A program made the translations under genes and the position numbers. DNA of 20,000 nt from an uncultured virus (IMG/VR IMGVR_UViG_3300049744_000074) (Duplodnaviria > Heunggongvirae > Uroviricota > Caudoviricetes): the IMG/VR virus record IMGVR_UViG_3300049744_000074. One strand, given 5' to 3'. The notes beneath the pieces were generated by a model that was given only the letters and a program-made list of their open reading frames with translations, searched no databases and was not told the origin of the DNA. Shown here piece by piece: positions 1-20,000 of the stretch. Within the stretch, counting starts at the first letter, position 1. Every line of letters begins with the position of its first letter.

Positions 1-3000
1 CCCGAGGCCGACGCGATCTACGACCAGATCCCCGACGCGTACGGCGGCAAGGTGATCGGCACTGACATTGCCCGCTTCATGCACCCCGCCTACCACACCG
101 TCGAAGGGCGGCGCGAGTTCACGGCTGCAACTTCCCGCGCCGCGAGCGTGTATGCATTTGACCGGCTGCGCCGCGCGATCGAGAAGCCTCCGGTCAGGCC
201 CGACGGCGAGCGGCCGCTCCTGATGTTCACGGCCGGCGGCGTCGCCTCCGGCAAGAGCTCCGCGATCGGGCCCGAGACCCTCGAGCGCGCCGACCTGGTT
301 TCCGACGGACAGATGAAGAACCCGGCGCAGGCGATCAAGGAGATCAACCTGGCGCTGCAGCACGGCTGGGACGTCGACGTCCGCTACGTGCACCGGCCTT
401 TCCCCCTGGTCGTCGAGGGAGCCATCCATCGCGGAATCACCACCGGCCGGTGGGGCCCGCTCTCCGAGCTACCGGACCTGCACATGCAGGCGCAGGATTC
501 CTTTGACCAGGTCGCGCGGCATTTCGCCGGCAATCCGCACGTCGATTCCAAGATCGTCGTGAACGAGGGAACGGCCCAGACGCCGGCGGCGCCGCGGCTG
601 GCCAATCGGTCGGACCTCGCAAAATCGGGCGTTTTACGCTATAGTGACAGAAGTGCTCTCGAAAGGTCGGTCCATGAAAAGTACGCCCAAGCCCGCGCCT
701 CCGGCAAATACCCCGCCGAACTTCTCGACCGGCTCGGCCAAGGCCTCCATGACGCCGGAGCAGCTGCACCGGCGCCGGCAGCGCAGCCAGCAGCTCGACC
801 AGGCGATCTTGAACACGCTGGCCCGGACCAGCAAGGCCCAGTAAGCCAGGAATCCAGCCATGGCAGCCAAGCAATCGAAGCAGGCCCCCCCGCCGCCGCC
901 GAGCAAATCGGTGCTGGCGGTCTACCGCCACGAGCCCAACGATCCCCAGGGCAACCAGAAGCGGTCCAGCCAGGCCCTGTCGCGGATGATGGAGCACGTC
1001 GTGCAGCAGAACGCCGCGCCCGCAGCGTCGCCGGGATCCAAGAAGCCCTCAAGTCCTTCGGCGGAGTAACTCTCCACGACGATGGGCAGAACCTCCACCT
1101 GGTGATGCCCAACCGGACGCGAATCCCCTGGCATCTCACCGAGCGCATCGAGCCGGCCGCCGACGAAATCCACAACTATCTGCAGAGCGCCCGCGTCGCC
1201 AATGACGGCAAAGCGGAATTTACGGCCAACGACGGCCGCACGCTGTCGCTGCCGGGTGATGACGCCGGCTGGAAGGCGCTGCCGGAAGCTGACCGCGCCG
1301 CAATCCTCGACAAGTTCATCGTCCGCGGCCGCTATGACGGCAACACCCGCGCGATCACCACCACCCACCGCGTCGGCGAGGATCACACCGTCGGCGCCGA
1401 GGAAGTCTTCCACGCTGAAGCGCACGGTCTCAAGGATGCCGATCGCCAGACGTACATCCGCATGATCAACCGCTACGACAACGAGGATGCCGCGTTCCAC
1501 GCGTTCATGCGGAGCCGCGGTAGCCGCGCCAAGTACTTCAAACGCATGCGCGAGGGGACGATCTACCTGCCGCCGGCGTTCGACCGCTATTTCACGCCGC
1601 GCGAGCGTGCGGCCGGCAAGCTGCTCGAGGCCGCCCAGAGCGAGGGCGTGCTGATGTCGGATGCGGAGTTCGAGCAGTTCCGCAATGATATGGGCGGGCT
1701 GCATCCCGACGTGCTCAAGGATTACCAGGTGCGGGGGAAAAACGGCAAGCTGGTGCTGGAGAAGGACGGCACCCCCAAGCTCACGCGAGAAGGGAAGCTG
1801 CTGGCGGAGTTTGTGGACGAGGATGGCTACTCCAATGCGACCGCAGACATGGATCCGGCGAAGGTCGACCGGTACCAGGACCGCGTGATCCGCGAGCTGC
1901 TGATGACCAAGGAACAGAAGATCCAGGCGGCGGCCGAGCACTACATGGATCCTCAGGCCCCGCCGGAGCTTCGCGAAGCCGCGGCCCAGGTGCTGGGGCG
2001 TCCCCTGGACGAGGATATCCCTTTCGCGGTGCGCAAGCGCGGCGAGGAGGAAGGCGGCGAGCAGCTCACCCTCGCCGGCGAGGCCCAGGGGCGGGAGACC
2101 GTGGGGGGCACGGGCAAGCTCTTCGAGACGCGGGCCGAGCGGCCGCGGCAGCCGGTCTACCGGGAATCCGCCGCGCCGATCGGCGCGGAGCGCTTCGGCG
2201 TCGACGCCCACGATATCCGAGTCGCATCGGCCTTCAGCGAGGAGGATCCGTCGCCGGCTTTTGCCTATGGGGTCAAGCAGGCGCTTGCGGGGAAGCGTGT
2301 GACGGCGGTGAAGGGCATGACGCCGGCGGAGGGCCGCGAGGCGCTGACGGGCGCTAAGGCCGCGGCCGAGGGAATGTCGCCGGTGCAGCGCGAGCATGCG
2401 GCGCAGCCGGCCGGAGAGGCGCCGGTCCAGGGGCAGGCCCGGATGTTCGCCGTGCGCAAGGATGGAACGGAAGGGCCCAGCGACGAAACGAAAGGCCCGG
2501 AATCCGAGACGAAGGTAGCGCCCAACGTGACGCGCTCCGCGGCGATCCTGGCGGCGGTGAAGACCCTGAAGTCGGCCGACCCGGAGATCTTCGATGCGCC
2601 GCCGCAGACCTCGGAGGTGCCAATGCGCGTGTCGGCCGCGGACATGCAGGCGGCGATCGACCAGGTGGGGACGGACTGGGCACTGGATCCGGCGGCCATG
2701 GAAAAGTACCGGCTGCCGGTCGACCAGCTGGCGCGCAAGCTGCTGTCGATCGCCCGCCGGCAGGGATCGTTCGATGCCGCGCTCGATTACCTCCACGATC
2801 CGCCGGCGCGCGACACGGGCATCAAGTCGCGGATCCGCTCCATCACCGAATCGCGCGACCCCGAGAAAATCATCCTCTCGGCCAAGGATGCCATCCGGCA
2901 GGCCATGCGGCAGCGCGAGCAGGGTCGGACCGAAGGCCTGCGGGAAGCGGTGAAGCTCCGCCAGCAGTTCCTGGAGGAGGCCTCCAGGTACCTGACGCCC

Positions 3001-6000
3001 GAGGAACGCGGGCCGCTGATGCGGGACCTGGCGTCGATCGGCAATGAGTCGGACCTGTACGCGCGGCTGGAAAAGGTCTATTCGGCGTTCGACCGCGCCC
3101 AGAAGCGGCAGGCGGTTAACGATGTGCGCGACCTGATCCGCGGCGCCGACACCAAGCACCTGCGGCCGGAATTCAAGTCGGCGATGGAGGCCCTCACCGG
3201 CGAGCTCGACGATGCGAACATGTCCGAACGCACCCGCGCCCGCGCGGAGAGCCTGGCCAGCCACGTGCAGAGCCTGAGCGACGAGGAACGGGCGGGGCTG
3301 CCCGCCCGGACCCAGGCGCTCCTGGAGCGGATGGGCAAGGAGGCCCTCGATACCTTCTCGGTCGAGGAGCTCCACCAGTTGGGGGATTCCATCCGCGCCA
3401 TCGTCACCCAGAACCAGCTGAAGAATCGCCTGATCGTCGGCAAGCACCTGCGGGCGATCGCCAAGGTCGAGAAGTCGGTCGTCGACGAGGTGATGAAGCA
3501 CAACAAGCCGCTGGGCCTGGTGGGTGAGGAGGGGAGCCGCAAGGAGCTGGCGGACAAGGGACTTGCCTCCCGGCTGGTGGAATTCACCGATTCGCCGGAG
3601 GTGCTGGCGGTCAGTGCCGGCGGCGAGGGCGGGGAGTTGCACAGCCATCTCTACGAGCAGCTGCGGCACGCCGAGAACGGGCACCTGGGTATGCTTCGCA
3701 AATACCGCGGAGAGATGCAGGAGCTGCTGGCCAAGCACAAGATGACCCCGCAGCAGATCATCGACTGGCGGGAGAAGACGCGCAAGGTGGAGCTCTCCGA
3801 CCTGCCGGCGAAACCGGTCAAGCGCCCCGCGGGCCGCGGCGGGCTCGATGCCCTGGACCAGGCGCAGCAGGCGGCGCAGGAGCGCGCCGACATGCTGGAG
3901 ACCTTCGGCGCGTCGCCGGAGGAGCTGGCGAAGGAAGGGGCCGCAGCGGCCGCGGCCGAGTCGGTGGAGCCGCCGGCGGCCGCCGAGCCGCGCACGCTGG
4001 AGATCACCGGGCCCGAGGCCCTCTCCGCGTGGCTCTACGACCAGAACCCCGACGCCCGCGAGAAGCTGCTGGCCAACCCGGTGAACCTGGAGCGATTCGC
4101 GGGCCAGTCGACGCTGAATCGCACGCTGATGCCGGTGGACCTGCGCGCGATCGAGGCGACGCTTACCCCGTTCGAGCGCGAGCTGGGCGAGACGATCCTG
4201 CGCCAGAACCGGGAGCTGGGCGAGGAAATCGGGAAGATCCACGTGCTGCTCAAGGGCTACGACATCACGCGCGAGGAGAACTATTTCCCGCTGCTGACCG
4301 ACCAGAAGCAGAAGCGGCGCGTGCTCGACGAGCTGGCCACCCAATACGCGGATAAATGGCTGGAGCAATCGGGCTTCCTGAAAGAACGCGTGCTGCATAA
4401 CGTGCCGATACTGCTCTCCGACGCCCTGGACACGCACCTGTGGCATCTCCGGCAGTCGGTCAGTTTCGTCAACAAGGCCATTCCGGTGCGCAATGCCCGC
4501 GTGCTGCTGGGGGCGCCCAAGGTGCGTGAGGTGATCGACGGCCACATCGGGCGGACCTGGACGCCGCGGATGGAGCGGCTGCTGAAGGATTTCTCCGGGG
4601 CGGAGCTGGGCGCCCGCACCGAGGCGGAAATGCTGGCGGCCAAGATCGCGCGCAACGCGGCCGCGGCGACGCTGGGGCTGCGGCCGACGACGGTGGCCAC
4701 CAACTTCATCGGGGCGCCGCTGGGGCTCATGACGCAGATGACGCCCCAGGAATCGCGCACCCTGGTGAAAAAGTGGATCAACCTCAAGGCCAACACGATC
4801 GACGCCGGCAAGTACTTCGCCGATCGGATCGCGCCCCACAATGCCTATCTGGCGGATCGGTACGATCCCCAGGGCGCGGTGCACCGGGTGGCGGTGATCG
4901 CCGGCGAGGAGGCGGCCGCCGGCGCCGGCGGATCCGCGCCCGGGATCCCGGGCGCCAAGACCGTCGCCGGGCAGCGCTGGCGCGACTTCCAGGAATGGTC
5001 CCTCTCCTGGATGAACCATGCGGAGCGGGCGTCGGTGGTGGCGGCGCATCGGGCGATCAGCGAGCTCAACCCCGAGTGGAGCGACGCGGAGGTCAGCGAC
5101 CACGTCGAGAAGATGGTGCGGCGCACGCAGAATGCGATCAGCTCCCTGGACATGTCCGAGTTTCTGCGGCAGACCAAGCGGCAGCCCTTCCTCGGGCTGG
5201 CCTTCATGTTCACCAACCAGGCGGCCAAGCTCAGGGACACGCTGCGGCTGGCGGCGCTGCGCTACACGCACTCGCATCGGACCCCGGCCGACAAGGCCCG
5301 GATCTCGGCGACGGCGGGCCTGGTCTTTTCCTCGGCCGTGGTGATGCCGGCGGTGGTGCGGGCGCTGTGGGGGCAGGTGCGGCAGGGATTCCGGGACCAG
5401 GAGGACGCCAAGACGCGCTCGGCCGGGCAGCTGCTCGCCGGCGGCGTGGCGGACCTGGCGGATGTCGCCCATCCGGTGATCGGGGACCTGGCGCGGGTGC
5501 TGACGCGCGGGGATGTCGGTGACTCGGTCAACAGCCGGGCGCTTGCGCAGATTGCCCAGGCCCTGCAGGGCACTTATTCGGCAGTCGCCAATCTGGGGGA
5601 ACCGGACCAGCGGCGGCAGCGGCAGGTCCTCCCGGCGATCTACCGGGTGATCTCGAACCTGTCGCGCGGTGTGGCGACGTTCGCCGGCATTCCCCTGGAT
5701 GCCCCGCTGACGGCCGCCGAGGGGGTGGGCCGGGCGATTACCGGGCGGCCCCCGGAGTTCGCCCTGCAGCAGGAGCTGCACCGCCTCCAGAAGCGGACCT
5801 ATCCGGGCGCGGTGGATCCGCGGAGCCGCTACGGGGACCTGTCGCCGCAGGAGATCCGCCGGCTGCGGACGCTGACGGCGATTACCGGGCAGATCGGCCG
5901 CGTGCGGCAGGCGGCCGCGTCGGGGCGCATCGACCAGGGGCGGGCGGAGAAGTCGATCGAGCAGCTGCTCGCCGCGGCGGGGCGGTCCCCCGTAATTTCA

Positions 6001-6012
6001 ACCGGGAGTTGA
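1..6012 (+). CDS. Large polyvalent / virion internal (DNA-ejection-type) protein, 5'-truncated; zeta-toxin-like P-loop kinase domain, degenerate zincin-like domain, long helical C-terminal region
   Basis: Frame is open from base 1 (PEADAIYDQIPDAYGGKVIGTD...), so the true start lies upstream and the visible part is >2000 aa. Walker A GGVASGKS at 235-258, followed by a zeta-like pattern (LVSDGQM...GWDVDVRYVHRP...AIHRGITTGR). RGRYD...EEVFH at 1324-1413. FAVRK linker repeated at 2023 and 2446. ENYFPL and GFLKERV motifs as seen in large phage ejection proteins. Confidence 0.8.
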   Translation, partial: PEADAIYDQIPDAYGGKVIGTDIARFMHPAYHTVEGRREFTAATSRAASVYAFDRLRRAIEKPPVRPDGERPLLMFTAGGVASGKSSAIGPETLERADLVSDGQMKNPAQAIKEINLALQHGWDVDVRYVHRPFPLVVEGAIHRGITTGRWGPLSELPDLHMQAQDSFDQVARHFAGNPHVDSKIVVNEGTAQTPAAPRLANRSDLAKSGVLRYSDRSALERSVHEKYAQARASGKYPAELLDRLGQGLHDAGAAAPAPAAQPAARPGDLEHAGPDQQGPVSQESSHGSQAIEAGPPAAAEQIGAGGLPPRAQRSPGQPEAVQPGPVADDGARRAAERRARSVAGIQEALKSFGGVTLHDDGQNLHLVMPNRTRIPWHLTERIEPAADEIHNYLQSARVANDGKAEFTANDGRTLSLPGDDAGWKALPEADRAAILDKFIVRGRYDGNTRAITTTHRVGEDHTVGAEEVFHAEAHGLKDADRQTYIRMINRYDNEDAAFHAFMRSRGSRAKYFKRMREGTIYLPPAFDRYFTPRERAAGKLLEAAQSEGVLMSDAEFEQFRNDMGGLHPDVLKDYQVRGKNGKLVLEKDGTPKLTREGKLLAEFVDEDGYSNATADMDPAKVDRYQDRVIRELLMTKEQKIQAAAEHYMDPQAPPELREAAAQVLGRPLDEDIPFAVRKRGEEEGGEQLTLAGEAQGRETVGGTGKLFETRAERPRQPVYRESAAPIGAERFGVDAHDIRVASAFSEEDPSPAFAYGVKQALAGKRVTAVKGMTPAEGREALTGAKAAAEGMSPVQREHAAQPAGEAPVQGQARMFAVRKDGTEGPSDETKGPESETKVAPNVTRSAAILAAVKTLKSADPEIFDAPPQTSEVPMRVSAADMQAAIDQVGTDWALDPAAMEKYRLPVDQLARKLLSIARRQGSFDAALDYLHDPPARDTGIKSRIRSITESRDPEKIILSAKDAIRQAMRQREQGRTEGLREAVKLRQQFLEEASRYLTPEERGPLMRDLASIGNESDLYARLEKVYSAFDRAQKRQAVNDVRDLIRGADTKHLRPEFKSAMEALTGELDDANMSERTRARAESLASHVQSLSDEERAGLPARTQALLERMGKEALDTFSVEELHQLGDSIRAIVTQNQLKNRLIVGKHLRAIAKVEKSVVDEVMKHNKPLGLVGEEGSRKELADKGLASRLVEFTDSPEVLAVSAGGEGGELHSHLYEQLRHAENGHLGMLRKYRGEMQELLAKHKMTPQQIIDWREKTRKVELSDLPAKPVKRPAGRGGLDALDQAQQAAQERADMLETFGASPEELAKEGAAAAAAESVEPPAAAEPRTLEITGPEALSAWLYDQNPDAREKLLANPVNLERFAGQSTLNRTLMPVDLRAIEATLTPFERELGETILRQNRELGEEIGKIHVLLKGYDITREENYFPLLTDQKQKRRVLDELATQYADKWLEQSGFLKERVLHNVPILLSDALDTHLWHLRQSVSFVNKAIPVRNARVLLGAPKVREVIDGHIGRTWTPRMERLLKDFSGAELGARTEAEMLAAKIARNAAAATLGLRPTTVATNFIGAPLGLMTQMTPQESRTLVKKWINLKANTIDAGKYFADRIAPHNAYLADRYDPQGAVHRVAVIAGEEAAAGAGGSAPGIPGAKTVAGQRWRDFQEWSLSWMNHAERASVVAAHRAISELNPEWSDAEVSDHVEKMVRRTQNAISSLDMSEFLRQTKRQPFLGLAFMFTNQAAKLRDTLRLAALRYTHSHRTPADKARISATAGLVFSSAVVMPAVVRALWGQVRQGFRDQEDAKTRSAGQLLAGGVADLADVAHPVIGDLARVLTRGDVGDSVNSRALAQIAQALQGTYSAVANLGEPDQRRQRQVLPAIYRVISNLSRGVATFAGIPLDAPLTAAEGVGRAITGRPPEFALQQELHRLQKRTYPGAVDPRSRYGDLSPQEIRRLRTLTAITGQIGRVRQAAASGRIDQGRAEKSIEQLLAAAGRSPVISTGS
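617..645 (+). promoter_or_regulatory. Candidate internal sigma70-type promoter inside the giant gene
   Basis: -10-like TATAGT at 640-645 in an AT-enriched patch; weak -35 TCGCAA at 617-622 with a 17-bp spacer; lies about 30 bp upstream of the nested ORF at 674. Confidence 0.35.
674..844 (+). CDS. Nested +1-frame small protein (56 aa; alternative start 749), candidate antitoxin/accessory factor
   Basis: SD-like GAAAGGT at 661-667, 6 nt before ATG 674. All 31 codons from 749 to the stop end in G/C, while 16 of 30 host-frame codons over 751-840 end in A/T. Confidence 0.55.
   Translation: MKSTPKPAPPANTPPNFSTGSAKASMTPEQLHRRRQRSQQLDQAILNTLARTSKAQ
860..1069 (+). CDS. Nested +1-frame small protein (69 aa), candidate antitoxin/accessory factor
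   Basis: AGGA 8 nt before ATG 860, which starts 15 nt after the previous nested stop. Only 4 of the first 54 codons end in A/T, versus about half of host-frame codons over 841-1020. Confidence 0.55.
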   Translation: MAAKQSKQAPPPPPSKSVLAVYRHEPNDPQGNQKRSSQALSRMMEHVVQQNAAPAASPGSKKPSSPSAE

Positions 6013-8461: not shown

Positions 8462-8679
8462 GCCGCCTCCTGGCCAATCCGGAAATTCTCGAACGCGCGC
8501 GGCATGACGCGGCGGTGTACCAGGCGATGCAGTACCTCCAGTCGGGCTCTTACGACGAGGTGCAGGTTTTGATGGGCCTGGTGGTCTATCTGTCGCGGGA
8601 TCGCGAGCGCCTGCGCGGCGAGCTGGTGCGGGCGCGGCGGCTCGATGCCTGCCCGCCCTCCTTCTCGCTTTTTCCCTAG
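8458..8679 (+). CDS. Hypothetical phage protein
   Basis: ATGA overlap with upstream gene, SD GGAGG, helical 73-aa product. Confidence 0.7.
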   Translation: MSRLLANPEILERARHDAAVYQAMQYLQSGSYDEVQVLMGLVVYLSRDRERLRGELVRARRLDACPPSFSLFP

Positions 8680-8690
8680 GTCCTTTCCTT

Positions 8691-8812
8691 CGCGGCCTCG
8701 TGGGCCGCGGAAGTCCGGGCCGGCGGTGTGTACTCCCCGCCGGCTTTTTCCCTTGTCCTTCTCCCAGGGCCCGGCGCCGGGTGTGTTCCCCCCGGCGCCG
8801 CCTCCCTTTTTT
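8691..8812 (+). terminator. Cluster of three GC-rich hairpins, two followed by T-runs (intrinsic terminator/attenuator-like)
   Basis: Stems CGCGGCC/GGCCGCG (8691-8709), GCCGGCGG/CCGCCGGC plus TTTTT (8719-8749), and CGGCGCCGGG/CCCGGCGCCG (8772-8800) with T6 at 8807-8812. Confidence 0.6.
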
Positions 8813-8830
8813 CTTGCAAAGGAGTCCCCC

Positions 8831-9598
8831 GTGCCCGAGCCGTTTCGATCCCCCTTCGTCAAACCCAGCCGCGAAGACCTGGTCAACCGCTTTTCCTACC
8901 ACGCGCCGCGCGGCGACCAGCCCAGCCGGTTCAACCGGATCCGGACGACGATCCTGGTGGCGGCGATCGATATCGTCGACCTCACGCCCTGCTCCCCGGA
9001 GCAGACGCGGGCGCTCAACGCGCTGGATGAGGCGATGTGCCTGGCCAATGCCGCGATCGCGCGCGGGGAAATGTCCGTGCACGAGCCGGCCGGGAGCACG
9101 GCACCAAGTGGTGGCGGACGCCCGCTGACGACGCGCAGCCGCGTGATGATCTGCGAGGGAGGCCTGCGAGGATGCGATGGCCGGATCCTCTCGGACAAGA
9201 CGGGCATCGCTGGCGTCTGGTGGGTGGGTGTTGATAGGGATCCGGCGGGCCGGCCGTGGCGTTCCGGGCCTCCGCAGATGTTCCGGGAGTACGAGCTGCA
9301 CGTTCTGCCCGAGGAATCGGATGAGGAATTCGAGATCTCGGTCAATGACTGGCTGGTCGCGCGGGCGATCGGCCAGACGGCCGCATCTCCCGCCACGCCT
9401 GCACCGGTGCAGCTCACGCCGGCCACACCGCTCAACAGCGACGTGGCGGCCGGCGACATGGACCTGCCCAACGCCTGCGGGGCGCTCACCGAGCCAGCGG
9501 CCGCCGTCGAGACGCTTGCGTCGACCTCTCCGGCCATCGAAGACCCCGCCCCCGCCCCCGAACAGGCCGCCCCCGCGGCAGAGGGTGGTGCCGCTTGA
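8831..9598 (+). CDS. Acb2/Tad1-like helical-hairpin domain fused to an SH3/KOW-like domain and an Ala/Pro-rich tail
   Basis: SD AAAGGAG before GTG 8831; DLVNRFSYHAPRGDQPSRFNRIR...TPCSPEQTRALNALDEAMCLANAAIAR matches the recalled family pattern NRFTYHxP..Q..RY..IR...CP.SRE.SLA...LEEA.MWANAAIAR. Confidence 0.65.
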   Translation: MPEPFRSPFVKPSREDLVNRFSYHAPRGDQPSRFNRIRTTILVAAIDIVDLTPCSPEQTRALNALDEAMCLANAAIARGEMSVHEPAGSTAPSGGGRPLTTRSRVMICEGGLRGCDGRILSDKTGIAGVWWVGVDRDPAGRPWRSGPPQMFREYELHVLPEESDEEFEISVNDWLVARAIGQTAASPATPAPVQLTPATPLNSDVAAGDMDLPNACGALTEPAAAVETLASTSPAIEDPAPAPEQAAPAAEGGAA

Positions 9599-12462: not shown

Positions 12463-14376
12463 ATGCCCACCAAAACGGCAAAGCGCCCATCTCCCCCCAC
12501 CCCGCGGAACCTGCGCGCGGCGGCCGACGCCGTCGACCACGCGCTCCAGGGCGCCGCGGCTTCGCGGTACCCGGTCCAGGATGTGCCCTGCGCGGAGATC
12601 GTCGACGACGGACACAATCACCGCGAGAACATCAAGGCCGACGACGCGGCGATCGCGGAGCTGGCCAAGTCGATGGGCGAGGGCGGGCAGCTGCAGGCGG
12701 TGCGCGTGTTCCGCGGGGCCGACGGGAAATATCACCTGATCTTCGGGTTCCGCCGGCTGCAGGCGGGCCGGAAATTAAAGTGGCCGACGATCCGGGCGGA
12801 AGTGGTGCCGATCGTGGTCAGTGACGCCGAGCGCCACCGCCAGCGGGCCGAGGAGAACCTCAAGCGGCGCAACCTGACGCCCGCGGAGGAGACCATCGCG
12901 GTGCACGAGCTGGTGGAGGCCAACGCCCCGATGCACGGCCTGGAGAAGGCGATCGACAAGGCGGCGGCGGACCTGGGCCAGTCGCGCAAGTGGGTCGATG
13001 ACCGCTACCGCGTCTTTGAGAAACTCTGCAAGGCCGGGCGCATCCTGCTGGGGGAAGGGAAGCTCAACCTGGGCCAGGCGCGGGCGCTGATCAAGATCGG
13101 CGACGGCGACGTCCAGGAGATGCACGCGAAAGATATCGCCCGATCGTTCGACCGCGGCGCGATGATCAGCGTGCAGCAGGTGGAAGGGTTTGTCCAGGAT
13201 CACAAGCACTCGCTGAAGGTGGTGCCCTGGGACGTCGGGGCATCGATGAAGACCGGCGTGAAGGGATGCGACCGCTGCATCGGCTGCGCGCACAACACGG
13301 CCACCAACCCGACCTTTTTCGATGTGGGCAAGGACGAGGCGAAGGACGGCGTCGGGAGCTGCACGCTGTCGCTGGGCTTCGAGGCCAAGGAGCAGATGAC
13401 GGCCAAGGCGCAGCAGGAGGCGGTCAAGAAGATCCGGAAGCAGGTGCAGAGCAAGCAGGTCGAGAAATCGAGCGCGGCGTCGGCGCCGGTGGTGCGCGAG
13501 GCCGTCGAGGAGTATGTGCGGCCGGAGACGGTGCAGCGGCTGGTGAAAAAGGAGATGGGGGCGCCCAAGGAAGCCGCGGGCAAGGGGACGAAGGGGGCGA
13601 AGGGGGGGGCGGCCAAGCCGGCGAAAAAGGAGACCGAGAAGGATCGGCGCTGCAAGGCGCAGGCGAAGTGGGCCAACGCCTTCGGGGAGTGGCGCAGGCA
13701 GCTGGACCAGGAAGTCGACCGTGTTCTGCAGAAGGATCCGCACCTTCTGCTGGCGATGGCCGCGATCAACCTTTCCGCGGCCGCAGATTCGCATGAGCAG
13801 TACCTGCTTTACTACTGGGAAGGGTCCGGCTTTGCCGAGCCCAAGCCGGAGAAGGCGGTCTCGCCCAAGCTGGCGGCGATGCTGGATCGCGTGCAGACGC
13901 GCAGCTACGAGTCGCTGCTGGCGTTGGCCGCGGAGCCGCACCCCGATCTGATGTTTAACAGCCTCGTCACCCACGGCGGTCCCGAGTTCTGCAGCCGGAT
14001 CGCGAAGGCGTTCGGGGTGACGCCCAAGAAGCCGCAGCCGGTGTTCGAGGATTTCCTGCCCGAGGATCTGCGGCCCACGAAGCCCGAGACGAAACCCACT
14101 GAAGCGAAGGCCGCGGCCGCGGGCAAGTCCATTCCGTTTCCCGACGGCGCTGTCGTGGCGCTCCGCATGGGCGGCGACGTGGGCCACGTCGTCGGCCACA
14201 CCGGCAACCAGCTGAGCGTCAAGTGGCTAGACGGGTCGGAGTCGACGGTGGCGCAATCGAAACTGCGAATCGCGACCCTGACCGAAGTCGAGGAATACCA
14301 CGGTCGGCGCAACACCAAACCTGACGATTTCGAGGACGAGGACGAGGGCCGCGCGGGCGACTCTCGCGACGAGTAA
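12463..14376 (+). CDS. ParB/RepB/Spo0J-family protein with Cys cluster and C-terminal SH3-like domain
   Basis: IAELAKSM...GQLQAVRV...YHLIFGFRRLQA...EENLKRRNLTPAEE plus HTH AAADLGQSRKWV; CIGC...C cluster; SD GAGAGG. Confidence 0.85.
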   Translation: MPTKTAKRPSPPTPRNLRAAADAVDHALQGAAASRYPVQDVPCAEIVDDGHNHRENIKADDAAIAELAKSMGEGGQLQAVRVFRGADGKYHLIFGFRRLQAGRKLKWPTIRAEVVPIVVSDAERHRQRAEENLKRRNLTPAEETIAVHELVEANAPMHGLEKAIDKAAADLGQSRKWVDDRYRVFEKLCKAGRILLGEGKLNLGQARALIKIGDGDVQEMHAKDIARSFDRGAMISVQQVEGFVQDHKHSLKVVPWDVGASMKTGVKGCDRCIGCAHNTATNPTFFDVGKDEAKDGVGSCTLSLGFEAKEQMTAKAQQEAVKKIRKQVQSKQVEKSSAASAPVVREAVEEYVRPETVQRLVKKEMGAPKEAAGKGTKGAKGGAAKPAKKETEKDRRCKAQAKWANAFGEWRRQLDQEVDRVLQKDPHLLLAMAAINLSAAADSHEQYLLYYWEGSGFAEPKPEKAVSPKLAAMLDRVQTRSYESLLALAAEPHPDLMFNSLVTHGGPEFCSRIAKAFGVTPKKPQPVFEDFLPEDLRPTKPETKPTEAKAAAAGKSIPFPDGAVVALRMGGDVGHVVGHTGNQLSVKWLDGSESTVAQSKLRIATLTEVEEYHGRRNTKPDDFEDEDEGRAGDSRDE

Positions 14377-18495: not shown

Positions 18496-18709
18496 CGTGC
18501 CCGGCGCCGATCAATCGCCCGCCCCGCGGATTTTCGCGGAGTCGGACCTCTACACCGTGGCGGAAATCGCCGAGCGGCTCAAGTGCGGGACCGACACCGT
18601 CGACCGGAAGATGAAGGCCCACAAGGTCAAATGCATTCGGTTCGGCGCCAAGAAGTACCTGGGCCGGGATTTGAACCGCGTGCTTGAGGCGGAATGGCAG
18701 GGGGGTTAG
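18485..18709 (+). CDS. xis: Excisionase-like HTH protein (recombination directionality factor)
   Basis: SD AGGAGG; DLYTVAEIAERLKCGTDTVDRKMK...IRFGAKKYL; immediately upstream of the integrase. Start is 18485 or 18497. Confidence 0.7.
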   Translation: MVSNVPGADQSPAPRIFAESDLYTVAEIAERLKCGTDTVDRKMKAHKVKCIRFGAKKYLGRDLNRVLEAEWQGG

Positions 18710-18713
18710 CCTC

Positions 18714-20000
18714 ATGCCCGTGGAACCGATCGAACGACAGCCGGGGAAGTGGCTTTACGACTACCACGACGTCCACGGCAAGCGCCGCTGGGGGACGGCG
18801 GGCGACAAGTCGACGGCCCTGACCATCCAGGCGGAACGCGAGAAGGAATGGCGGCTGGTGCGCGAGGGGGTGCTCAAGCCCGAGCAGCTGCTGCGGTCGC
18901 GGGCGAGCGGGCGGCCGATCGAGGCGCAGATCCGCGAGTACGAGGAGCACCTCCGGGGCAAGCGGGTCGGCGACAAGCACCTGAAGAACTCGATCGACGC
19001 CCTGCGGCGGGTGGTGGGGTGGCTGGGGGCGGGCACGGCCGCGGCGATCGCCCTGGAACGCGTGGAGTCGCTGTTCAACCGCAAGATGGAGGGGGGGATG
19101 GGCCCGCGGATGCGGAATTTCTACGTCAAGCTGCTCAAGGCCTTCCTGGAGGAGATGGAGGACCGCAACCAGGTGCTGCGCAATCCCCTGCGGAAGATGC
19201 GCGCGATCAACGAGGAGGTCGACCAGCGGAACGTGAGCCGGCCGCTGACGCACGCGGAGTTTGACCAGCTGCTGGCGCCGCTGGCCATGCCAGCGCCGGA
19301 GGAAGGGAAGGAGCTGGTGGTGACGCCGCAGCTGCGGAGGCGGGCGGAGCGGCGGACGTTTTATCTGCTGGTGGCGCGGACGGGGATGCGGTGGGAGGAG
19401 GCGGGGCGGCTCTCCTGGAACGACCTGGACGCGGCCCGGTGGTGGCTGGAGGTGGGGGCTGGGCAGGCCAAGACCAAGCGCGGGGCGTCGCTGCCGGTGC
19501 CGACGGACCTGGTGGAGGCCCTGCAGGAATGGCGCAAGCTGGCGCCCGCGGGGGACGGGGTACTGTTCCCCTCGGGGGTGCCGACGCTCAAGACCTGGAA
19601 GCGGGACCTGGTGGCGGCCGGGCTGGTGCAGCTGCCGCCCGCGCAGAAATTCGCCAGCAAACAGCGCAAGAAAAAAGGGAAGGGGGAGGCGGCCGCCGGC
19701 TACGTCGACCGGTACGCGAAAACCAAGGAGCTCGCCGGCTACGCCGACAAGGACGGGTGCAAGCTGCATCGCAAGTGCCTGCGGCTGACCTTCGGGACCT
19801 GGCTCTATGAGGCGGGGGTGGACATCCGCGAGGCCCAGCGGCTCATGCGGCATGCGGACATCAACCTGACCAGCAAGATCTACACGCGGCCGCGTCTGGT
19901 GAACCTGCAGGCGGCGGCGGAGAAGGTGGCCGAGGCGAGGAAGCCGGCGGCCTATGGTCCTTCAGCACCGGGCACAAACCAGGCGAAAAATTCAGCGTAA
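18714..20000 (+). CDS. int: Tyrosine recombinase / phage integrase
   Basis: Catalytic motifs TGMRWEE (R), AKTKR (K), RKCLRLTF (K in place of H in HxxR), MRHAD (H), KIYT (Y); N-terminal arm-binding and SAM-like regions; stop at 19998-20000. Confidence 0.93.
   Translation: MPVEPIERQPGKWLYDYHDVHGKRRWGTAGDKSTALTIQAEREKEWRLVREGVLKPEQLLRSRASGRPIEAQIREYEEHLRGKRVGDKHLKNSIDALRRVVGWLGAGTAAAIALERVESLFNRKMEGGMGPRMRNFYVKLLKAFLEEMEDRNQVLRNPLRKMRAINEEVDQRNVSRPLTHAEFDQLLAPLAMPAPEEGKELVVTPQLRRRAERRTFYLLVARTGMRWEEAGRLSWNDLDAARWWLEVGAGQAKTKRGASLPVPTDLVEALQEWRKLAPAGDGVLFPSGVPTLKTWKRDLVAAGLVQLPPAQKFASKQRKKKGKGEAAAGYVDRYAKTKELAGYADKDGCKLHRKCLRLTFGTWLYEAGVDIREAQRLMRHADINLTSKIYTRPRLVNLQAAAEKVAEARKPAAYGPSAPGTNQAKNSA

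Follow-up and report, generated by a model that had tools for sequence, protein, structure and literature searches.

Which product, or products, are encoded at the place where a giant viral gene passes from one conserved module to the next and the codon usage typical of its genome moves out of the giant frame? This question is raised by a stretch of 20,000 nucleotides (the window) of an uncultured member of the Caudoviricetes, recorded as IMGVR_UViG_3300049744_000074. A giant open reading frame (ORF) for a polyvalent-type protein occupies frame 1 of the + strand at 1..6012, being open at the 5' end of the window and closed by a stop codon at 6010-6012. It combines a zeta-toxin-like P-loop kinase module (1..745, +) with a conserved, uncharacterised downstream module of about 1650 aa, referred to here as module B, and around the junction lie two small frame-2 ORFs, ORF1 (674..844, +) and ORF2 (860..1069, +). 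The initial annotation of the locus had regarded these as a hidden operon at 617..1069, overprinted in the giant gene behind its kinase domain and encoding candidate antitoxins or immunity proteins. Our results associate ORF2 with module B, and on balance we think it probable that ORF2 is a functional gene, nested in the giant one, with a product that serves the first subdomain of this module as a cap or chaperone.

In the rest of the giant ORF, the G+C content at the three codon positions of frame 1 is 0.70, 0.46-0.47, and 0.89-0.90. In 749-1020 this pattern moves to frame 2 (0.66, 0.44-0.47, and 0.88-0.97), and the third positions of frame 1 drop to 0.47. A codon-usage likelihood scan over the whole giant ORF pointed to the same region, with frame 1 being beaten only in scanning windows starting at 601-961, where frame 2 is ahead by 2-37 nats. 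When all six frames were scored, frame +2 gave -3.62 to -3.65 nats/codon in 749-844 and 860-1033 (-3.65 for the ORF1 codons at 749-841), true coding sequence elsewhere gave -3.66 and -3.70, and frame +1 gave off-frame-like values of -4.4 to -4.5 in these two segments; wherever they were scored, the antisense frames fell behind the sense coding frame. ORF length alone is uninformative here, since this DNA of 67% G+C has 134 listed ORFs of at least 50 aa in the window. The codon counts of the initial annotation are exact: in frame 1, 16/30 codons end in A/T over 751-840 and 31/60 over 841-1020, and in frame 2 codons ending in G/C make up 31/31 over 749-841 and 50 of the first 54 in ORF2 (60/69 over the whole of ORF2). 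Its view that frame 2 takes over the coding signature also stands, although the change begins near 749 and not at 617 or 674. The segment 617-745 is conserved frame-1 coding sequence, because homology to P0004, a relative of the giant protein, reaches nt ~741 in frame 1 (BLASTP, 53% identity over aa 3-247). Overall, the compositional evidence supports frame 2 in the linker as genuinely coding, and we delimit the dual-coding stretch as 749..1033 (+), where frame 1 reads as an Ala/Pro/Gly/Gln-rich linker and frame 2 has the native codon usage.

The giant frame is nevertheless kept open. Of the 88 frame-1 codons at 748-1011, 81 have G/C at the first position and 40 at the third. Frame-2 codons ending in G/C produce frame-1 codons starting with G/C, so that stops do not arise and the linker consists of Ala, Pro, Gly, Gln, Arg, and Glu; frame 1 indeed has no stop anywhere across the segment. 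Frame 1 has none of the start codons ATG, GTG, and TTG from 601 to 1101, a span that includes the codons of residues 338-367 (1012-1101); as these residues are conserved in, and internal to, the homologous proteins P0002 and P0003, module B cannot start independently here. As judged from these sequences, frame 1 must also be translated across the segment. Since frame 2 has stops at 842 and 1067, no pair of insertions or deletions (indels) yields one continuous frame, and an assembly error is an unlikely cause of the pattern. For overlapping genes, the frame nearer to the codon usage of the genome is taken as the older one in the relevant passages of PMC8227390. By this criterion the giant gene would overprint the small genes, with the native usage in the latter and the linker reading derived, which reverses the order proposed in the initial annotation. 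The first frame-1 start codons after 601 are a GTG-ATG pair at 1102..1107 (+), and the Met at this pair (M32), 35 nt past the ORF2 stop, is invariant in 3/3 module-B sequences; that it serves as a re-initiation start, from which module B would also be made separately, is speculation. Besides, the frame-2 signature sets in at an ATGA (749-752, a frame-2 ATG over a frame-3 TGA), and seven consecutive C (885-891) are found in the proline stretch of ORF2; each is a candidate for a former stop-start junction or a site of slippage.

The anomalous segment is the exact junction of two modules that are found separately in other giant proteins. A word-index search with the frame-1 protein returned seven proteins at E <= 0.001 among 7999 scored candidates; five of them share the zeta module (P0004-P0008) and the other two share the downstream part (P0002 and P0003). 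When aa 1-250 were scanned alone, they matched Pfam PF06414 (Zeta_toxin) with 31.0 bits vs. a cut-off of 22.3, and the whole giant protein scored 22.1 bits, slightly below this cut-off. A Walker A motif, GGVASGKS, occurs at aa 79-86 (nt 235-258), aligned with GGVAAGKS in P0004, and a conserved C-terminal helical extension continues to nt ~745. Based on PF06414 and the Walker A motif, the module fits the Zeta toxin/PezT family and has a putative kinase activity. Protein P0006, a zeta homologue with a cut N-terminus, ends 12 residues past the end of the zeta homology of the window, which indicates that the zeta module can be C-terminal in a protein and fits a fusion origin of the gene in the window.

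The first conserved domain of module B (1012..2040, +, frame 1) covers aa 338 to ~680 and opens with RRARSVAGIQEALKSFGGVTLHDDG. Its ~340 residues are strongly conserved, with 62% identity to P0002 and 45% to P0003 (alignment A2 and BLASTP), and the frame-1 alignment to both proteins is solid from aa 338 (nt 1012). The start of module B is internal in both, deep inside the protein, and P0002 has no zeta module. In the window, the first 19 codons of module B overlap the 3' end of ORF2. Further downstream, aa 1332-1788 of the giant protein match phrog_28077, a family with no assigned function. Module B returned two rows at E 0.75 (Era GTPase) in the PDB sequence search, no match at E <= 0.001 with Foldseek (best E 0.12, TM <= 0.2), and no family in NCBIfam or PADLOC. 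In a VIA wide search, residues 1-140 of module B (1012-1430), an alpha/beta subdomain, were closest to VRR-NUC and endonuclease-like chains (Z 5.2-5.4, rmsd 4.0-4.8, 70-79 residues aligned), followed by zincin-like peptidases, all below the level that the tool rates as common. No match to 1-6012 was found by blastn among phages and plasmids, and searches for related loci with the zeta module, module B, P0001, A1, and P0002 in viral, metagenome, and genome contigs found none, the sets searched differing from query to query.

ORF2 has the properties of a gene in its own right. It encodes 69 aa from its own ATG and is preceded by a Shine-Dalgarno-like AGGAA (848..852, +), 7 nt ahead of the ATG. 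The sequence AGGAAT at this site is identical to that before the ATG of a ParB-like gene at 12463, and other genes of the element have GGAG or GGAGG 5-9 nt upstream. A phmmer search of ORF2 against 1.84 billion representatives returned five proteins at E <= 0.001, including the match to itself. P0011 (62 aa) is 52% identical to ORF2 end-to-end (E 3.6e-9), P0012 (104 aa) is 41% identical (E 4.6e-6), and both are genes called separately. The two others were dropped as relatives, one (P0013 or P0014) consisting of tandem 'LAVYRH' repeats and the other being a low-complexity protein of 737 aa. The three remaining members share M1, AVYR, D, GN, R, A, RM, and V, and a hydrophobic stripe, A-[LMI]..M-[MLL]..V, is kept as polar positions vary, as in an amphipathic helix. 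The core of ORF2 (aa 18-50) is composed of a strand (LAVYR), an NDPxGN turn, and an amphipathic helix, and AlphaFold2 gave a single helix at 29-51 with pLDDT 80-88 over aa 21-50. Considering these similarities, ORF2 is a real member of a rare conserved small-protein family, which upholds the claim of the initial annotation that it is a coding ORF with a ribosome-binding-site-like element.

The family appears small in every collection searched. The phmmer search of 1.84 billion representatives contained no longer protein with the ORF2 motif in frame, and a profile search with the ORF2 family alignment A1 retrieved only the three known members. The tblastn search for stand-alone peptide homologues suggested in the initial annotation found none (ORF2 vs. 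phages and plasmids, ORF1 vs. plasmids), and ESM Atlas gave no usable match for ORF2. Neither peptide (P0009, P0010) has a family in Pfam, PHROGs, NCBIfam, or PADLOC, and no antitoxin family was matched. Comparison of the frame-2 and frame-3 peptides with P0002-P0008 by BLASTP yielded no convincing match; that of ORF2 to aa 95-152 of P0007 (E 0.005) was obtained in a low-complexity region with a seven-protein database and no composition correction.

The family is linked to module B by what the relatives allow in a shifted frame; these relatives were represented by their proteins and not by their DNA, so each test concerned what the protein sequence permits. In the +1 frame of P0002 at aa 789-830, just before RRAKSIAG, the ORF2 core is encodable in 32/41 columns, including 12/13 of the invariant ones, against a null with a mean of 15.0, a standard deviation of 3.05, and a maximum of 27 over 13,386 positions. 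Under a conditional null that keeps the 13 frame-1 identities, the value observed for P0002 was reached in 41/5000 draws, and in 15/5000 with P0011 and P0012 only as reference; permutation nulls gave 58/5000 and 11/5000. An ATG at the same distance from the Tyr as in the window (21 codons upstream), the invariant Met, and a stop at the same codon are also permitted by P0002. In the -1 frame of the P0011 tail, the start motif of module B is encodable in 11/12 positions at the homologous register, which was reached by 1/27,178 positions and 15/5000 shuffles. We infer that P0002 contains a nested copy of ORF2 and that the gene of P0011 overlaps a module B. For the zeta homologues P0004-P0008, the kind of relative in which the initial annotation proposed to examine the conservation of the +1-frame ORFs, the same protein-based test gave no value above the null maximum for a nested ORF1 or ORF2 in any of the five. 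The distribution supports an association of ORF2 with module B, and not with the zeta-like kinase.

Co-folding of ORF2 (alignment A1) with residues 1-345 of module B (alignment A2), with three rows per alignment, gave a score of 0.68 (runs 0.70, 0.68, and 0.66), the best of three controls being 0.00. This score passes the mark set for it, which is reached by 116/157 solved complexes and 2/215 mismatched pairs, figures that are only a rough guide here as our own alignments were used. The runs share at least 58% of their contacts. In the model, the strand LAVYR (ORF2 19-24) pairs with module-B residues 100-107 and the helix (35-52) packs on residues 12-64; the predicted docking surface in the interface list comprises module-B residues 12-117 (1045..1362, +). 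No similar solved complex was found by sequence, the PDB search returning only the two rows at E 0.75. The prediction supports a putative binding of ORF2 to the start of module B. The idea in the initial annotation of a domain with a nested partner is thus preserved in spirit, ORF2 being predicted to bind a domain of the giant protein, but the domain would be module B and not the kinase.

Based on these results, we propose that nt 749-1033 are read in two frames, with frame 1 providing the disordered linker from the kinase to module B and frame 2 the small genes. ORF2 would be translated from its own AGGAA and ATG, its last 19 codons overlapping the first of module B, and its product would bind to module B within the first ~117 residues, by means of an added strand and a packed helix. 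Made from the same mRNA, beside the place where the module-B domain emerges, the ORF2 product would act as a dedicated partner of module B in the producing cell, either as a chaperone or as an inhibitor-like cap. The sequence of the linker would then largely be a by-product of the G/C-ending codons of frame 2.

Several observations weigh against this proposal. The shifted-frame tests are partly circular, since proteins that are alike in one frame are also more likely to permit likeness in the other. In P0003, module B occurs with no nested signal (15-22/41 at the homologous register), and P0012 has no module-B motif, its best score being 8/12 elsewhere in the protein. The ORF2 family comprises three members only, and no relative of ORF1 was found by a word-index search, which was restricted to 'near' lengths and was neither exhaustive nor extended to longer proteins, or by tblastn against plasmids. 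The metagenome contigs that cover the region are identical to the window, and they give no frame-specific substitution data. In the co-fold the partner has pLDDT 55-58, the alignments have three rows, and the score is the model's own confidence. Finally, as neither a fold nor a function could be assigned to module B, a part for ORF2 as chaperone or inhibitor is a guess.

The same composition could be the scar of a fusion, in which the small genes were once independent, with an upstream gene on one side and module B on the other, until a stop was lost and frame 1 ran on across them; they would now be dead, with a signature that has not yet decayed. The codon-usage criterion, as given in the passages of PMC8227390 mentioned above, makes frame 2 look ancestral and the linker derived, and the 81/88 frame-1 codons starting with G/C mean that frame 1 stays open at no cost; the lack of ORF1 relatives and the end of P0006, with its C-terminal zeta module, agree with such a history. 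A dead ORF2, however, would hardly have retained its start, its Shine-Dalgarno-like site, its full length, and all invariant residues of the family. The same overlap is inferred in two further lineages where module B is only ~53-62% identical, a distance over which a dead frame would not last, and the third positions of frame 1 would have drifted from 0.47 towards 0.9 G+C. The co-fold result is also specific to ORF2. We consider a scar of this kind unlikely. A shift from frame 1 to frame 2 would give the signature another meaning: ribosomes slipping near 745 or at the C7 run would end at TAA 842 or at 1067, so that truncated versions of the upstream protein would be made and ORF1 would represent the former tail of the zeta-module gene. 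The frame-2 signature does follow directly on the end of the zeta homology, the ATGA and the C7 run are present, and P0006 ends soon after its zeta module. But inspection, by eye only, revealed no recognisable slippery site, neither P0011 nor P0012 retains the C run, and BLASTP of the frame-2 peptide found no match among the tails of the zeta homologues. The initial Met of ORF2 and that of P0011 are equally far from the core, and ORF2 is preceded by a Shine-Dalgarno-like site of its own; alternative C-termini seem to us very improbable.

The small helical antitoxins of the epsilon/zeta and PezA/PezT pairs lend some appeal to the idea from which the locus was first described, namely that ORF1 and/or ORF2 neutralise the upstream kinase domain and are expressed from an internal promoter. 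The upstream module of the window matches Pfam Zeta_toxin and has a P-loop, the small ORFs come directly after it, and ORF1 overlaps its last codons. Unlike in those pairs, the partner here does not lie beside a free-standing toxin gene, has no similarity to an antitoxin family (Pfam, NCBIfam, and PADLOC for either peptide), and tracks another domain: ORF2 goes with module B, including in P0002 where the zeta module is missing, and none of the five zeta homologues carries the signal. The predicted single helix of ORF2 is not a three-helix bundle. The TATAGT proposed as a -10 box (640-645, +) lies in conserved coding sequence, where it encodes the Tyr-Ser of 'LRYSD', aligned with 'FHYNQ' of P0004, and it has no -35 box; a promoter and terminator scan of 400-1300 returned 0 sites, and no two-hexamer site of the sigma-70 type was present. 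An antitoxin against the kinase is accordingly among the least probable explanations. We give equally little credence to an artefact, i.e., an assembly error, an indel, or separate genes misread as one giant ORF. The metagenome origin and the short contigs of low depth invite this suspicion, but contigs of two runs that are not marked as possible sources match the window at 202-796, 436-641, and 811-1035 with zero differences, the frame-2 stops bar any indel pair giving one frame, and module B is also internal in P0002 and P0003.

The contigs used for this comparison came from runs X9, X14, X17, and X23; they were short and of low depth, and gave no polymorphism data. One X17 contig does not have 2+2 nt at 1010 and 1014, where frame 2 hands over to frame 1, which counts on the side of an artefact and may represent a variant or another organism. 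One X14 contig joins 718 to 764 and drops 45 nt including the ATG at 749, with 21 nt on its shorter side; it may likewise be a variant or another organism. Pieces with 80-90% likeness to the window also occurred in the runs, being short and with many differences, and were taken as other organisms.

If ORF2 is indeed a live partner of module B, a known system that it resembles in layout is the Rz/Rz1 pair of lambda, where an embedded +1 gene, often left unannotated, encodes a product that forms a complex with the product of its host gene, as described in sections of PMC6139136. Both cases have a small same-strand +1 gene within a longer one, the complex being known for Rz/Rz1 and only predicted here. 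For embedded spanin genes, an origin has been proposed in which an upstream stop was lost and the long gene extended over the small one (parts of PMC6139136 and PMC5295617). Judging from sequence features, ORF2 has the embedded, out-of-frame architecture: it lies on the same strand in another frame inside a longer ORF, its frame appears coding, and the host frame appears translated. The window differs in that the host is longer than 2000 aa, the nested gene lies in a linker between modules and runs 19 codons into the next conserved domain, and there is no lipoprotein signal or membrane role. In Bacillus subtilis, comS is encoded in a distinct frame of srfAB, a very large multi-domain gene, in the same operon (passages of PMC12915044, a study in which comS was given a stop that is silent in the other frame). 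The likeness is that of a small out-of-frame protein inside a giant multi-domain gene, but ComS acts in an unrelated pathway (competence) and not on the host protein, and its gene lies in a folded synthetase region and not in a linker. The disordered spacer between two enzyme domains of the hepatitis B polymerase is read over the preS/S gene, and a sliding codon-usage analysis suggested that a short gene had been located between two genes that later fused across it (parts of PMC8227390). This spacer shares with our linker its disorder and its overlap with a gene in another frame, but it belongs to an animal virus and an envelope protein, and nothing suggests that the nested product binds the polymerase.

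What appears to be new here is the setting and the family, namely a predicted partner nested in a linker of a giant polyvalent gene, directly before the domain that it is predicted to bind. We found no paper on nested genes in polyvalent proteins, our searches not having been aimed directly at that question, and 'overlapping' and 'linker' each occur 0 times in Iyer et al. 2017 (PMC5512222). Annotation treats each giant polyvalent protein of phages and conjugative elements as a single ORF and disregards the low-complexity linkers; to judge from this case, a linker may double as the gene of a small protein acting on the domain that follows. The case also points to a simple way for such proteins to become larger where the genome is rich in G+C, namely read-through of a neighbouring small gene, which is possible because the G/C-ending codons of the small gene keep the other frame free of stops. 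ORF2 and aa 338-460 of the giant protein form a predicted pair, and provide a handle on an uncharacterised module of 1650 aa. A bolder version, which we hold to be doubtful, is that 'domain plus nested guardian' cassettes are a feature of polyvalent proteins: the out-of-frame gene in the linker, ORF2, would provide an immunity-like inhibitor that caps the domain encoded right after it, silencing a harmful first subdomain of module B in the producing cell until the giant protein is transferred, and the pair would move between giant genes as a unit. It could be mobile as one unit because the G/C-ending nested codons give a stop-free linker to any upstream module.

ORF1 encodes 56 aa in frame 2 from the ATG at 674 to a TAA stop at 842-844, with GTG 644 and ATG 749 (the ATGA overlap) as alternative starts and weak Shine-Dalgarno-like sites before ATG 674 and ATG 749. 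The part of ORF1 before 749 coincides with frame-1 codons that are conserved in the zeta module. Its matches in ESM Atlas (0.76-0.77) are below the useful range. From its codon composition alone, three identities are conceivable for ORF1, namely another nested gene, a relic, and the former tail of the gene of the zeta module. The statement that gene callers miss both small genes holds in part: ORF1 and ORF2 are recorded as called genes on a 1611-bp contig, so that they are called when the giant ORF is cut short.

The window represents a mobile element that occurs in rhizosphere and soil metagenomes, the stretch being present in 24 sequencing runs, none of which is listed as RNA. Besides the giant gene, the element encodes a tyrosine integrase (18684-20000), the ParB-like protein mentioned above (12463-14376), an excisionase-like HTH protein, and a weakly matching Rep-like protein. 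Opposite the giant gene lies an antisense ORF of 1619 aa (922-5781, -), most likely a shadow ORF in G+C-rich DNA. A further ORF at 8645-9595 (+) encodes 317 aa, of which residues 84-140 resemble the Pfam Acb2/Tad1 hairpin domain with 26.2 bits vs. a cut-off of 27 (E 9.4e-6); the ORF also matches phrog_1454 (E 2.8e-12). By similarity, its product may serve the element as a sponge that takes up cyclic nucleotides acting as immune signals.

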